A program made the position numbers and the translations under genes. The notes below the pieces were generated by a model. It was given only the letters and a program-made list of their open reading frames with translations, was not told where the DNA came from and did not search any database. Positions 47,540-58,613 of a stretch of DNA of 64,000 nt are shown piece after piece. The stretch's first letter is position 1, and each line of letters starts with the position of its first letter. The stretch is from Escherichia coli (GTDB lineage Bacteria; Pseudomonadota; Gammaproteobacteria; Enterobacterales; Enterobacteriaceae), in assembly GCF_001677475.2 (NCBI RefSeq), contig NZ_CP015229.1; one strand, written 5' to 3'.

Positions 47540-47616
47540 CGGCACGTAGCGCAGCCTGGTAGCGCACCGTCATGGGGTGTCGGGGGTCGGAGGTTCAAAT
47601 CCTCTCGTGCCGACCA
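47540..47616 (+). tRNA. proL: tRNA-Pro (anticodon GGG)
   Basis: 77-nt CGGCACGTAGCGCAGCCTGGTAGCGCACCGTCATGGGGTGTCGGGGGTCGGAGGTTCAAATCCTCTCGTGCCGACCA. It has a 7-bp acceptor stem (CGGCACG/CGTGCCG), the T-loop GGTTCAAATCC, the anticodon loop U-GGG-G and an encoded CCA. Confidence 0.97.
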
Positions 47617-47618
47617 AA
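47602..47618 (+). repeat. attL core (direct repeat formed by the 3' end of proL)
   Basis: CTCTCGTGCCGACCAAA is identical to 58597-58613. Extended to 21 bp (AATCCTCTCG... versus AATACTCTCG...) there is one mismatch. Confidence 0.9.
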
Positions 47619-47652
47619 TCGCCCACCGGAAAGCACCGAATAAGACAGGGAT

Positions 47653-47686
47653 AACCCGCTAATCACTTGATTGGCGGGTTTTTTTA
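47653..47686 (+). terminator. Island-borne rho-independent terminator downstream of proL
   Basis: AACCCGC-(14 nt)-GCGGGTT followed by TTTTTTT. It replaces the native proL terminator, which now lies after attR (58621-58651). Confidence 0.7.
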
Positions 47687-47739
47687 TGGTTTTTAGTCAC
47701 CGAACATCACCGGATTTATAAGCTATCAGCCGGATTTTT

Positions 47740-47791
47740 TAGTTATACGTTTAGTTATACGGGCTGGCGTATAACTAAAGCCGTATAACTA
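47740..47791. promoter_or_regulatory. Putative integrase arm-type binding sites / int promoter region (attL arm)
   Basis: The 10-mer TAGTTATACG occurs twice directly (47740, 47752) and twice inverted as CGTATAACTA (47768, 47782), 34-85 bp upstream of the int ATG. Related AAGCTAT(C/A) motifs occur at 47720 and near attR (58514-58535). Confidence 0.6.
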
Positions 47792-47824
47792 AAACCCTGT
47801 TTTTTCGTGTGGAATCATAGACAT

Positions 47825-49066
47825 ATGGCGAGAAAAACACCCCCATTAACCACAGTGCAGATCAAAGCAGCCAGACCAGCGCAAAAGGAGTACACCCTAC
47901 AGGACGGCGGTGGGCTTTTTCTCCTGGTAAAACCGTCCGGATCAAAACTCTGGCGATTTTCCTACTACCGACCATCGGACAAAAAAAGAATATTGCTGAG
48001 TTTTGGATCGCTTGAAGATGTTTCCCTGGCTGATGCCAGAAAACGCCGTAGCGAGTACAGGACGTTAATCAGTGCCGGAACTGACCCGCAGGACCATGAG
48101 AAGAAAAAACGAGAGGCAGAGGCCCGAAGACAAGGGAACACGTTCGAAAATGTGGCGGCGGCATGGTACCAGGTGAAAATCAGCCAGAATCTGGCCCCCA
48201 ACACGATTAAAGACATCTGGCGTTCGCTGGATAAATATGTATTCCCGTTCATCGGCAACACGCCAATAGATACCCTCACCGCTCGCCGCTTTGTTGAGAT
48301 ACTCACACCCATTAAAGCACGCGGCAACCTGGAAACTCTGAAACGCGTTTTACAACGCATCAATGAAGTGATGGATTTTGCTGCCAACAGTGGGCTGATT
48401 GACATCAACACCGCCGCGAACGTCCGCAAGGCATTCCCTTCCCCCACTAAAAAGCATATGCCAACCATCCGACCGGAACAGCTACCGCAGCTAATGCACG
48501 ATTTATCGGTCGCCAGCATAGAACGGCAAACCAGATTGCTAATCGAGTGGCAACTGCTGACCGTAGCACGCCCAGCCGAAGCAGCCGCCGCACGCTGGGA
48601 AGAAATAGATCTCGATGCCGAAACATGGACGATTCCAGCCGGACGCATGAAGATGCGCCGTGACCATGTGATCCCTCTTTGCGGTCAGGCGATAGCTGTA
48701 CTGGAAACAATGAAGCCAATCAGCGCACACAGGGAACATGTTTTTCCCAGCCTTAAAAATCCAATGCTGCCAATGAGCAGCCAGACCGCTAACGCTGCAT
48801 TGCGCCGGATGGGATACGCTGGTGTGCTGGTGTCTCACGGATTACGCGCCATATTCAGTACAGCAGCGAACGAGGAAGGATTCGAGCCGGACGTAATCGA
48901 GGCCGCACTCGCACACGTGGACACGAACGAGGTAAGGCGAGCATATAACCGAAGTAACTACCTGGAAAAGCGCGTGGTGCTTATGCGCTGGTGGGGGGAA
49001 TTTGTAGAGGCCGCAGCTACCGGAGTGACCATAGCCAGTGGTAAAAGGGGTATCCGTGCCGTGTAA
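47825..49066 (+). CDS. int: Tyrosine recombinase, P4-family integrase (DUF4102 arm-binding N-terminus plus catalytic domain)
   Basis: 413 aa from MARKTPPLTTVQIKAARPAQKEYTLQDGGGLFLLVKPSGSKLWRFSYY, a typical P4/CP4-57-type N-terminus. The C-terminus has HGLRAIFST (HxxR) and ...RRAYNRSNY (catalytic Tyr region). It is adjacent to the tRNA attachment site. Confidence 0.92.
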   Translation: MARKTPPLTTVQIKAARPAQKEYTLQDGGGLFLLVKPSGSKLWRFSYYRPSDKKRILLSFGSLEDVSLADARKRRSEYRTLISAGTDPQDHEKKKREAEARRQGNTFENVAAAWYQVKISQNLAPNTIKDIWRSLDKYVFPFIGNTPIDTLTARRFVEILTPIKARGNLETLKRVLQRINEVMDFAANSGLIDINTAANVRKAFPSPTKKHMPTIRPEQLPQLMHDLSVASIERQTRLLIEWQLLTVARPAEAAAARWEEIDLDAETWTIPAGRMKMRRDHVIPLCGQAIAVLETMKPISAHREHVFPSLKNPMLPMSSQTANAALRRMGYAGVLVSHGLRAIFSTAANEEGFEPDVIEAALAHVDTNEVRRAYNRSNYLEKRVVLMRWWGEFVEAAATGVTIASGKRGIRAV

Positions 49067-49164
49067 CTGTACAAAAAACCAGTAAAAGCGATGCAAACCA
49101 TGCCAAACCATCGTATAATTGCCACAAATTTAACGACAAGGCCGGAGTATATGAAAATTCTATT

Positions 49165-49395
49165 ATGCAAAATACCACCGCCTACGGCGAAGGGCTGCAA
49201 CTGGCGTTAATGGCAAATCGTGAATTCTGGTCAACATACGATCCGGAAGACAAATCAACAGCCCCCACAAAACACGAGGTAGTCAGTTTTTTGCGCTCGC
49301 GTGGTGCATCGAAAAATCTGGCTGAAAGCATCGACAAGGTGCTGAGGCCCACCAGCCTTAAATGCGGTGGGCGACCTAAGAAGTGGAAACGGTAA
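49165..49395 (+). CDS. Hypothetical small basic-tailed protein (76 aa)
   Basis: ORF MQNTTAYGEGLQLAL...CGGRPKKWKR is followed by a terminator, with a perfect TATAAT at 49114-49119 upstream. There is no convincing SD, and a competing 19-codon ORF with a better SD starts at 49151. Confidence 0.4.
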   Translation: MQNTTAYGEGLQLALMANREFWSTYDPEDKSTAPTKHEVVSFLRSRGASKNLAESIDKVLRPTSLKCGGRPKKWKR

Positions 49396-49400
49396 TCACA

Positions 49401-49430
49401 ATAGCGGCCCTTTGCGGTCGCTATTTTTTT
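49401..49430 (+). terminator. Rho-independent terminator between the int unit and the alpA unit
   Basis: ATAGCGGCC-CTTTG-CGGTCGCTAT imperfect stem followed by TTTTTTT. Confidence 0.65.
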
Positions 49431-49460
49431 GCAGAAAGAAAAGCGTAATCAATGAGATAA

Positions 49461-57214: not shown

Positions 57215-57230
57215 CTTGCTGAACTTAAAG

Positions 57231-57332
57231 CATAATGGAAATTTGCACTCTGGCCTAACCCGTTAATATTTCAGCAAAGTGCAAATTTGCGTTCTGTAGC
57301 TGGTGGCTGGCAGAATGTAAATTTACATTCTG
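57231..57332. promoter_or_regulatory. Three AAATTT-centred palindromic sites (candidate protein-binding array)
   Basis: CATAATGGAAATTTGCACTCTG (57231-57252), CAAAGTGCAAATTTGCGTTCTG (57275-57296) and the perfect 22-bp palindrome CAGAATGTAAATTTACATTCTG (57311-57332). Their centres are 44 and 36 bp apart. They lie between two convergent ORFs. Confidence 0.6.
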
Positions 57333-57337
57333 GTGAT

Positions 57338-57637
57338 TTAATCATCTGATTTACCCAGCCCGTACCGGATTACCGTACAGTGAGCGCCATCGCTACCGAT
57401 ACGCACATCAAAGCGGGGTTCGCGCACTTTCACGCGGTACAGGATCCCATCATTTACCATAGCGTTTAACGTTCGTCGGGTTGCCTCTATGTGGTATCGC
57501 TGATATTCGGAACCATAGAGCAGCAATGTAACACCACGAACATCAAATGGTGGTTCTCCAGCCTCCACCCGCACCCAATCGCGATACTCAGGTTTGTAAA
57601 GTTCAAGAATCTGTTTTTTGTGCCTGGTCATTCTCAT
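57338..57637 (-). CDS. Hypothetical protein (99 aa), divergent from the perC-like gene
   Basis: I chose the start MRMTRHKKQILELYKPEY... with the SD AAGGAA 7 nt upstream. The 43 extra codons of the longest ORF overlap the perC-like upstream region and look non-coding. No recognisable family. Confidence 0.55.
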   Translation of the reverse strand: MRMTRHKKQILELYKPEYRDWVRVEAGEPPFDVRGVTLLLYGSEYQRYHIEATRRTLNAMVNDGILYRVKVREPRFDVRIGSDGAHCTVIRYGLGKSDD

Positions 57638-57743
57638 GTGTGATTCCTTATTGTGGGACAGTACTGTCATACAATAAGCTATGAGGGAAATTATCAAAAG
57701 AACGGAAACCAACCATTCAGATTTAACAGGTATCAATGGGATT

Positions 57744-58052
57744 ATGCTTATGGTGCATGATGACAAAGCGGAAGAACTGGAAGCGAAAGGTTTATGGCGA
57801 CGGGCGGCTAATCGCTGGGGTGAGTTACTGAAACAGGCGGCAAGTGATGAAGCGCGTCAGTATGTAACGGAACGACGAACGGCATGCATCCGGAAGGCAA
57901 CCATAACCCGGGAACCGGAAAGAGACCTGATTTGCGCCATAAGAACCGCCGCCACAAAAACACTAACGGATATGGGGATCGACCTGAAAAAAGAAGATCC
58001 ACTGCGGGGCATTCAGCACGGACATACAAAGCAGGATAAACGCAGGAAGTAA
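57744..58052 (+). CDS. PerC/Pch-family transcriptional activator homologue
   Basis: AEELEAKGLWRRAANRWGELL...RQYVTERRTACIRKA...ICAIRTAATKTLTDMG matches the PerC/Pch signature (LE.KG.(W/Y)RRAA.RW...RR..C......I.RAATKTQ..MG) as I recall it. The start is uncertain (57681, 57744 or 57750). Confidence 0.65.
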   Translation: MLMVHDDKAEELEAKGLWRRAANRWGELLKQAASDEARQYVTERRTACIRKATITREPERDLICAIRTAATKTLTDMGIDLKKEDPLRGIQHGHTKQDKRRK

Positions 58053-58163
58053 ATTTTTCCGTGTAACCAGGCAACCGACTATCTGAAAGATAGTCACCCC
58101 CTACCGGGATCACGCTAGTAACGCACAACAGAGTGACCCATAGCCACCCTGTTCAACCGTTCC

Positions 58164-58207
58164 GGCTGGCTGGCTGGCTGGCTGGCTGGCTGGCTGGCTG
58201 GCTGGCT
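58164..58207. repeat. Tetranucleotide microsatellite (GGCT)11
   Basis: Eleven uninterrupted GGCT units (44 bp), intergenic, about 110 bp after the perC-like stop. It is flanked by 11-bp direct repeats CACAACAGAGT at 58124 and 58239. Confidence 0.95.
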
Positions 58208-58513
58208 GGGCAGATTTTGCGCGGGTCTTATAGTCCCTCACAACAGAGTAAATAAAATTGACTTGGTTACAGAGTAACCAAACCGGAGATTTCCGGTTTG
58301 CTCAAAAAATGACAATGAGTTACGCCCCTAACCTAAGTAATCCTTACATTCACTGCATCATCACCATGATGGTGACGCAGCCCACCAACAACCATAACGA
58401 CTTCCGTTACGGTTGATGCTTTTACCCCATTGGGGGGGGACATCCACCAGCTTGATAACGGATAACAGGGAGTCATAACGGTTAAAATTGTATACTTTTG
58501 CAGCAAACATTTT

Positions 58514-58535
58514 TAGCTACACGTTAAGCTATACG
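58514..58535. promoter_or_regulatory. Putative integrase arm-type sites (attR arm)
   Basis: TAGCTACACG and AAGCTATACG are tandem and related to the TAGTTATACG / AAGCTATCAG motifs in the attL arm. They lie 62-83 bp from the attR core. Confidence 0.5.
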
Positions 58536-58596
58536 ATTATGGATTAAAATTTTTTGACTTCAATTAAATCAAATAGTTACACACACGTTTTGAATA

Positions 58597-58613
58597 CTCT
58601 CGTGCCGACCAAA
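58597..58613 (+). repeat. attR core (duplicate of the proL 3' end)
   Basis: CTCTCGTGCCGACCAAA is identical to 47602-47618. Confidence 0.9.

Follow-up and report, generated by a model that had tools for sequence, protein, structure and literature searches.

Phage-inducible chromosomal islands (PICIs) have been defined by an integrase, a regulator, a primase-replicase, a capsid gene and terS, the gene for the small terminase subunit (TerS), and must not carry genes for portal, connectors, tail or holin; where all five components are present (type A), 97% of the elements come from Escherichia coli (PMC10085698). The island EcCICFT073 needs int, alpA, pri-rep and cos together with the helper terminase, and is moved by lambda and phi80 (PMC6092414). 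The gene following its cos1 site is rppA, the product of which forms a complex with the TerS of the helper and directs it to the cosB of the island; the EcCICFT073 cosQ and cosN, unlike cosB, were reported to be lambda-like (PMC6739421). Other PICIs, namely EcCIATCC25922, EcCIED1a.1, EcCI11128, EcCI11368.1, SdCI1012 and SbCISb227, were assigned to the yejM site in Table S1 of the 2018 survey. Here we describe an island of 10,995 bp at positions 47619-58613 of a 64,000-nt stretch of an E. coli genome (contig NZ_CP015229.1, assembly GCF_001677475.2), referred to below as the window. It is very probably a classical enterobacterial PICI of the EcCICFT073 / EcCIATCC25922 family, with a P4-type integrase, inserted in the 3’ end of proL. 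An earlier interpretation, the sequence-only reading, had proposed a helper-dependent satellite and not a decayed prophage; this is supported by the attachment (att) repeats, the existence of the empty site, the PICI core set, the synteny with EcCICFT073 and the likeness to PICIs known from the yejM site, such as EcCIATCC25922.

The borders of the island are defined by the tRNA-Pro(GGG) gene proL, the sole tRNA gene detected by ARAGORN in the window. The 17 nt at its 3’ end, CTCTCGTGCCGACCAAA, are present exactly twice in the 64 kb, at the left and at the right border of the island (attL and attR cores in Table 1), with no copy expected from shuffled sequences. The repeat lengthens to 21 nt with one mismatch, as the sequence-only reading had stated, and the start-to-start distance of the two copies equals the unit size of 10,995 bp. 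That reading had also claimed a precise insertion, and the search for the empty-site junction agrees: when positions 47300-47618 were joined to 58614-58930 and compared to 5426 complete E. coli genomes, the joined flanks were recovered as a single unbroken piece with 99.5% identity, and at least 80% of the query was covered in 3784 of these genomes, in the context yejM / tRNA-Pro / yejO. The rest of the window was said to be colinear with K-12, which is likewise the case. Positions 1-47618 align to MG1655 2,238,606-2,286,289 and positions 58593-64000 to MG1655 2,286,269-2,293,051; both K-12 blocks include the 21-bp repeat, over which they overlap, and the colinearity over 2,238,606-2,293,051 is broken only by the insert and by the IS5K element of K-12 in yejO. 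Since both flanks consist of core genes, the alternative that the island belongs to a larger prophage does not hold.

The gene content was analysed with Pfam, PHROGs and NCBIfam; all open reading frames (ORFs) of at least 40 aa were listed, every ORF plausible as a gene was scanned, and the PICI components were checked singly with Pfam and PHROGs. All five core components (int, alpA, pri-rep, capsid gene and terS) are present. The integrase gene is at one end with a regulator of the alpA type (as opposed to merR or stl) beside it, a capsid morphogenesis gene is usual in proteobacterial PICIs, and the unit size agrees with the approximately 10 kb of PICIs. Portal, protease, scaffold, large terminase subunit (TerL), connector, tail, holin and CI/Cro had no Pfam or PHROGs match in any scanned ORF, so the island carries none of the parts that a PICI should lack. 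The same holds true for families corresponding to psu, sid, delta and epsilon. No homologues of Ppi or CpmA/B were found in the island, and its ORFs comprise neither lysis genes nor O/P-type replication. Thus, both halves of the inventory in the sequence-only reading stand: int, alpA, iteron origin, two head genes, cos and terS were recovered by profile searches and motif counts, and portal, protease/scaffold, TerL, tail, lysis and CI/Cro functions had no family match. The listed genes cover approximately 76% of the unit. Apart from eukaryotic miRNA models on the iteron and cosB repeats, the Rfam scan of the island (E<=1) returned the tRNA only, with no C4, IsrK or P4-CI-type immunity RNA. PADLOC, applied to the small and accessory ORFs and the replication protein, gave no defence system, and Pfam at a permissive threshold gave nothing meaningful for YlcI, the Icd-like ORF, orf99, orf93, orf81, orf76, orf82 and the N-terminus of the replication protein (Pri).

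Comparison to the known PICIs shows that the parts are shared to very different degrees. EcCIATCC25922, EcCIED1a.1 and the other yejM-site PICIs have the same integration site, integrase lineage (90%) and arm-type repeats. EcCIATCC25922 has in addition its genes between int and the 93-aa ORF in an identical order, a Nu1-type terS with 86% identity and a lambda-type cosN before terS. It differs in the pri allele (49% identity), the pair of head genes (55/54%) and a 137-aa ORF at the place of an AlpA-like gene of our island. The latter is further distinguished by its frameshifted ssb and by an additional PerC cassette on the right. EcCICFT073 is alike in synteny throughout, in the iteron origin after pri, in the presence of genes similar to lambda E and D and of a PerC gene, and in a lambda-like cosQ/cosN with divergent cosB just upstream of the packaging-specificity gene. 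Identities to its proteins range from 100% (YlcI), 89% (orf81), 84% (orf93), 75% (SSB) and 68% (DUF4222) to 54% (capsid and decoration proteins), 49% (PerC), 48% (Pri) and only 24% (Int), and its att site is ycfD-phoQ. Moreover, EcCICFT073 has two cos sites and RppA, which hijacks the helper TerS, whereas our island has one cos, a full-length TerS and no Rpp homologue.

An integrase of the same lineage adjoins proL in 439 of the 5426 complete genomes (approximately 8%). Partial matches to the island were found in 2337 genomes but none end-to-end, the best one having 87% coverage and 95% identity. When six relatives were compared, alpA and pri agreed with the EC43 type (100% and 99%), the block of E, D, helix-turn-helix (HTH) gene and terS was of the Z1323CEC0010 type (99-100%), and the PerC cassette was common with a different proL island in strain A19. 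Thus, the island is a mosaic of known parts and belongs to a common, catalogued kind of PICI, not to a new variety. The IMG/VR record UViG_2721755653_000003 (10,228 bp, from an isolate genome) is 100.0% identical to positions 47825-58052, including a deletion in ssb, which means that the island was already harvested by an automated pipeline. As a single element it is ordinary; its value lies in being a clean example of the TerS-bearing subtype. Two GenBank entries filed as ‘Escherichia phage’, ON470618.1 and ON470578.1, are only 14.9 and 16.2 kb in size and have portal and protease/capsid genes. They are of satellite size and may represent elements similar to capsid-forming PICIs (cf-PICIs) that were sequenced from particles.

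The packaging module consists of a cos site and the terS gene. The exact lambda cosN, GGGCGGCGACCT, occurs as a single copy 134 nt upstream of terS. In EcCICFT073 there is a second cosN; here only one exact site was found, and matches with two mismatches were no more frequent than by chance. The near identity to the lambda ends extends over approximately 80 nt, from GGGTCCTTTCCGG (starting at 56142) via cosN to TTTTCGCTATTTATGA, and beyond this the similarity stops. The motif GGGTCCT, which we take to be the mapped lambda cosQ, precedes the cohesive end by 30 nt, as it does in lambda. When the cos1 and cos2 sites of EcCICFT073 were aligned, they had the same pattern, lambda-like and then divergent. 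The cos site is conserved among the proL islands.

The TerS protein aligns along the entire lambda Nu1 and N15 gp1. The latter is the nearest phage TerS, with 48% identity overall and 59% in the N-terminal DNA-binding part. Residues 96-165 are 46% identical to the Nu1 region aligned within residues 100-181, and Nu1 residues 100-181 were reported to bind TerL (PMC6739421). In addition, all island TerS proteins examined have a C-terminal extension of 13 aa that the phage proteins do not have. Among seven islands the DNA-binding end and the cosB stretch are 96-100% conserved and the C-terminal part 74-79%, and in EC43 and UTAK-5 the TerS C-terminus changes together with a different cosN, GGGCGGCAGACG. 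The dN/dS (ratio of nonsynonymous to synonymous substitution rates) of terS between island alleles is 0.18-0.27. One may surmise that the DNA-binding end and cosB serve as the address label of the island, while the C-terminus and cosN would be matched to the gpA-type TerL of the local helpers. This TerS/cos anatomy offers a testable model, in which a conserved DNA-binding end goes with cosB and a variable C-terminus changes with the type of cosN. In the proL island of strain A19, TerS (locus L014, 8547-9131) has a lambda-like DNA-binding end, the lambda-type insertion included, joined to a C-terminus and extension of the island type, and the cos is different; this architecture indicates that domains have been shuffled among the TerS proteins of satellites.

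The 144-aa RppA of CFT073 had no blastp match in the island, and neither the terS product nor orf93 had a match in PDB; crystal structures of RppC and of the RppC-TerS complex were reported (Rpp paper). By megablast, satellite-type terS was present in 721 of the 5426 genomes and rppA/B in 97, RppC being too divergent to be counted by this method. In the complete-genome set the TerS-bearing subtype is therefore approximately seven times commoner than the RppA/B subtype, from which the packaging model was derived, and no experimental study of packaging in the TerS subtype was found in the literature searched.

Between origin and cos the island carries a pair of head genes. Over its full length, the capsid homologue has 42% identity to lambda E, and the decoration homologue is approximately 40% identical to phage D proteins; in the phage collection searched no phage copy was more than 60% identical to either of them. 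Their dN/dS values of 0.06-0.09 are the lowest of the island genes (int 0.09-0.25, orf93 0.18-0.36), and the two genes diverge jointly between island types (99/100%, 84/96% and 55/54%). The UTAK-5 proL island (locus L012, 7992-9905) has a terS of the same family, but in place of the E-D-HTH block it carries a ClpP-protease/major-capsid fusion with 57% identity to the one in mEp460 and cdtI, which are lambdoid phages. Here the capsid module was swapped between helper head types, and it thus seems to go with the kind of head that the helpers make. The E- and D-like proteins are products of functional genes under strong purifying selection; most likely, they would become part of a helper-built capsid or remodel it. 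Decoration proteins of the gpD type act on shells that are already expanded and filled, and so the island proteins would be likelier to be found in particles than merely to poison assembly. Lambda packages roughly 75-105% of its genome length; four units of the island amount to 43,980 bp, or 90.7% of lambda, and three to 68%, so that full-size heads would take tetramers.

Based on this anatomy, the following cycle can be proposed. A lambda-like helper phage would switch on alpA, as in homologous islands, and Int and an AlpA/Vis-type factor would excise it at the 17-nt core of the att sites. Replication from the TGTTCACC iteron origin would then be started by the P4-alpha-like helicase and origin-binding protein, whose gene is located just upstream, and would lead to concatemers. 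The Nu1-type TerS would bind the island-specific cosB and recruit, by its conserved C-terminal half, the gpA-type TerL of the helper; this TerL would cut at the lambda-identical cosN with the cosQ-like segment at lambda spacing, and the DNA would be packaged into heads completed with helper portal, protease/scaffold and tail. At the corresponding place the EcCICFT073 locus holds Rpp, which must borrow the helper TerS; here, a complete satellite TerS takes this position. The logic is the same as in SaPI1 and SaPIbov1, islands of the Staphylococcus aureus pathogenicity island (SaPI) type with an own TerS, and in SaPIbov5 with the capsid homologue Ccm: a satellite TerS redirects the helper TerL, and the satellite has a capsid copy (PMC6739421; cf-PICI preprint). 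There is no sequence relationship to the SaPIs, which use the Stl repressor instead of AlpA and pac headful instead of cos packaging.

Several observations weigh against a PICI that is active in this way. There is no helper phage in the window. The phage TerS closest to that of the island, from N15, has no more than 48% identity, which does not single out a particular helper or TerL. The covariation between TerS and cosN was seen in a handful of islands only. Deletion of the E- or D-like gene of EcCICFT073 altered neither interference nor transfer (PMC6092414), so that the one experiment at hand does not support a capsid role; this lack of phenotype conflicts with the strong purifying selection on the pair, and no newer literature on satellite E/D-like genes was found. 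For the N-terminus of Pri there was nothing in Pfam or PDB, and a catalytic primase domain was not detected. Finally, because ssb is frameshifted, replication could be impaired.

Two of the alternatives to a classical PICI concern the ancestry of the element. The E, D and Nu1 homologues, the lambda cosN and the frameshifted ssb could be what is left of a decayed lambda-like prophage that retained few head and packaging genes. This is highly improbable, since the replication and integration modules are P4-like and not lambdoid, the island-type gene order and the size of approximately 11 kb are met with again in hundreds of genomes and at more than one att site, strong purifying selection acts on the head genes, which share no more than 40-48% identity with any phage copy, and the att repeats are perfect, with no remnants of tail, lysis or immunity functions. 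The lambda-type features in turn make a P4-like satellite depending on a P2-type helper very improbable: the cos site with exact lambda cohesive ends is of the lambda and not of the P2 type and precedes a Nu1-type terS, the capsid genes are of the lambda E/D type, and none of the P4 genes psu, sid, delta and epsilon has a homologue in any scanned ORF, nor is there a primase domain of the alpha type. The likeness to P4 comprises the integrase family (Int 34% identical), the alpha-type helicase/origin-binding protein (49%), the identical iteron octamer, two genes of the AlpA/Vis type and a size near that of P4 (11.6 kb). As pointed out by de Sousa et al., int, alpA and primase alone cannot tell P4-like satellites from PICIs.

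The other two alternatives concern the present way of life of the island. Its capsid and decoration proteins, a co-diverging pair encoded by the most constrained island genes, and its own TerS would fit a cf-PICI or a partial one, in which the shell is made from the island E and D and the remaining parts come from the helper; judging by the properties of lambda gpD, the decoration protein would be useful only on expanded, DNA-filled shells. We regard this as rather unlikely, because portal, protease, head-tail adaptor/connector, TerL and HNH, which define the cf-PICIs, were found in no ORF. Further, the packaged DNA of EcCICFT073 was all phage-sized (PMC6092414) and its E/D-like genes were dispensable for transfer. 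An immobile PICI relic which no longer replicates or transfers is not very likely either, although a 56-bp frameshifting deletion in ssb, the same in the IMG/VR isolate record, points in this direction. There is no lesion in the five core components, in the origin, in cos or in either att core, attR is perfect here as compared to deletions of 1-2 nt in relatives, SSB is not a PICI core component, and host SSB is available.

Assuming a classical PICI, we may speculate further that TerS-type, E/D-bearing PICIs are intermediate between tail-and-head thieves and capsid-forming PICIs. E and D would build or co-build a shell on helper portal, scaffold and protease, perhaps with a smaller triangulation number for one or two 11-kb units, and TerS with its 13-aa extension would outcompete the helper TerS for TerL. 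Although we consider this unlikely at present, it would provide a function for the capsid genes that were without phenotype in EcCICFT073, and a packaging route distinct from Rpp in the apparently commoner subtype.

Table 1. Features of the proL island and its borders (positions in the window).
Feature	Position	Strand	Basis and remarks
tRNA-Pro(GGG), proL; integration target, left intact	47540..47616	+	ARAGORN; sequence identical to K-12 proL
attL core, 17 nt, proL 3’ end	47602..47618	+	Exact repeat
Island-borne intrinsic terminator, now ending the proL transcript	47653-47680 and T-run (to 47687)	+	12-pair stem, 4-nt loop
Four putative arm-type integrase sites TTAGTTATACG, two direct and two inverted	47739..47792	.	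Pattern TWAGYTAYACG
Tyrosine integrase, P4 type, with arm-binding domain	47825..49066	+	Pfam Phage_integrase, Phage_int_M, Arm-DNA-bind_3
Small ORF	49165..49395	+	Without family match; conserved in relatives; followed by terminator 49400-49425
Candidate operator, 20-nt x2 repeat upstream of alpA	49461..49500	.	TRF; in all proL islands examined
alpA, presumed master activator of the island cycle	49566..49772	+	Pfam Phage_AlpA
Divergent YlcI/YnfO-family gene, 59 aa	50055..50234	-	NCBIfam NF041551
Icd-like small ORF, first of the rightward operon	50434..50640	+	Translation; gene of relatives annotated ‘host cell division inhibitor Icd-like’
Three small early genes, orf78, orf82 and DUF4222	50630..51413	+	PHROGs of unknown function; Pfam DUF4222
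Replication initiator (pri), P4-alpha-like helicase and origin-binding domain, 601 aa	51410..53215	+	Pfam D5_N, DUF5906, Pox_D5
Replication origin, nine exact TGTTCACC iterons in both orientations round an AT-rich spacer	53227..53462	.	Directly after pri
Conserved small ORF (orf81)	53503..53748	+	phrog_1231; 89% identical to EcCICFT073 homologue
ssb with 56-bp deletion	53745..54111, ORF end 54044	+	Pfam SSB; alignment to intact 140-aa relative
Lambda gpE-type major capsid homologue, 346 aa	54329..55369	+	Pfam Phage_cap_E, 4e-41
Lambda gpD-type head decoration homologue	55379..55720	+	Pfam HDPD
Second AlpA/Vis-like winged-helix protein, 127 aa	55732..56115	+	Pfam Phage_AlpA, phrog_2790, PDB 8C3T
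cos site: cosQ-like GGGTCCT (56142-56148), cosN (56172-56183), own cosB with inverted GGTTGGTG/CACCAACC arms	56142..56304	+	
Nu1-type small terminase, 180 aa	56317..56859	+	Pfam Phage_Nu1, phrog_57; full-length alignment with lambda Nu1
Conserved 93-aa ORF (orf93)	56933..57214	+	phrog_1561; after terS or rpp in all islands examined
Accessory cassette: 99-aa ORF 57338-57637 (-) and PerC-family regulator 57744-58052 (+)	57338..58052		Pfam PerC
Two putative arm-type integrase sites, right arm	58513..58535	+	Pattern TWAGYTAYACG
attR core	58597..58613	+	Exact repeat
Native bidirectional proL/yejO terminator, displaced by the insertion	58621..58651	.	Directly 3’ of proL in empty-site genomes

The integrase shares 90-91% identity with the integrases of other proL islands. 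The pattern TWAGYTAYACG has six matches in the window, all of them at the island ends, while 0.11 would be expected. From their position and arrangement, and by analogy with the annotated arm repeats of the P4 attP, these copies probably represent arm-type integrase sites. In Table S1 of Fillol-Salom et al. 2018 (ISME J) the arm-repeat sequence is given as the ‘att core’ of the yejM-site PICIs. ATCC 25922 is the published representative that we used for this site, and its published coordinates span from the left to the right arm repeats, with the duplication of the proL 3’ end falling outside. The limits given by the sequence-only reading, which follow this duplication, are thus the better ones. 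In the ATCC 25922 locus itself (L013, 750-800 and 12009-12032), it is the proL 3’ end, approximately 150 bp further out on the left, that forms the true duplicated core.

The Z1323CEC0010 relative (locus L002, NZ_CP148445.1, 1500-1516 and 11985-11993), with 95% identity, sits in rclA and not in proL. This insertion disrupts rclA and represents an off-target integration. Since the ectopic junctions have only TCTCGTG in common, the strand-exchange segment should lie in the left part of the 17-mer, and the attP formed on excision would read ...GAATAC-TCTCGTG-CCGACCAAATCG... The right ends of the relatives (L009-L013) deviate from the perfect attR of the window: four strains have CTCTCGTGC-GACC and ATCC 25922 has CTCTCGTG--GACC. 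These deletions may reflect either a decaying tRNA remnant or differences between attP alleles. Next to the attachment sites, both terminators were located (Table 1), so that the view of the sequence-only reading that the island brought in its own terminator and pushed the native one away from proL is correct. The downstream gene yejO (58713-61304) is intact here and encodes an 863-aa autotransporter; it is split by IS5K in K-12 and contains internal stops in several other strains.

The part of Pri that corresponds to residues 313-776 of P4 alpha, namely the helicase and origin-binding part, accounts for the 49% identity mentioned above, and the EcCICFT073 pri-rep to which Pri is 48% identical is functional. 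Residues 493-589 match PDB 1KA8, a 100-residue fragment of P4 alpha (primase), which presumably is its origin-binding domain. The N-terminal 133 aa are unrelated to the alpha primase domain, and an AlphaFold model of the N-terminal 157 aa, based on the single sequence, had a predicted local distance difference test score (pLDDT) of 47.5 and an alternating beta-alpha pattern only, too poor to search with. Thus, of the ‘primase-helicase’ proposed originally, the P4-alpha-like helicase and origin-binding part was recovered, whereas the name primase is inherited from the family only. Nine exact TGTTCACC octamers are present at the origin, compared to 1.9 expected in the whole window. The octamer corresponds to the ‘ori type 1 repeat’ annotated in the P4 GenBank record, and a full-text literature search for it returned unrelated primer sequences only. 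Iterons after pri round an AT-rich spacer are the layout described for origins of Gram-negative PICIs (Fillol-Salom et al. 2018).

The ssb-like gene had been recognised correctly as to its homology (Pfam), but it is a frameshifted remnant: due to the deletion the frame is lost after approximately 86 codons and the acidic C-terminal tail is out of frame. A sequencing artefact can be dismissed, because the identical sequence with this deletion is found in the isolate genome record of IMG/VR.

The presumed activator role of alpA rests on experiments with EcCICFT073 and EcCIMP1 (PMC6092414, PMC11773190). Approximately 70 nt upstream of alpA, the two 20-nt units AAAACAGTGGGTACCGTTTT and AAAACGGTGGGTACTGTTTT with a central 16-bp palindrome were found. 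The repeat is kept even in a proL island in which AlpA is only 75% identical, and it is not present in EcCICFT073; the induction switch may have its operator here. The second AlpA-like gene, located between the head genes and cos, had been missed in the sequence-only reading. Its product is 37.5% identical to P4 Vis. The divergent gene after alpA, described there as a gene for a ribbon-helix-helix (RHH) protein, does exist and belongs to the YlcI/YnfO family, its product being 100% identical to the EcCICFT073 counterpart. The proposed fold is weakly founded and unproven: the AlphaFold model has a pLDDT of 83, and the best Foldseek matches are the RHH proteins VapB, Arc, CopG and CdbA, all with E>3.

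A total of 53 genomes carry the PerC cassette; in strain A19, for instance, it lies at the right end of the proL island. PerC-family regulators are a class linked to virulence gene control. Between the PerC gene and the right-arm integrase sites, a perfect, non-coding (GGCT)x11.5 array is located at positions 58164-58209.

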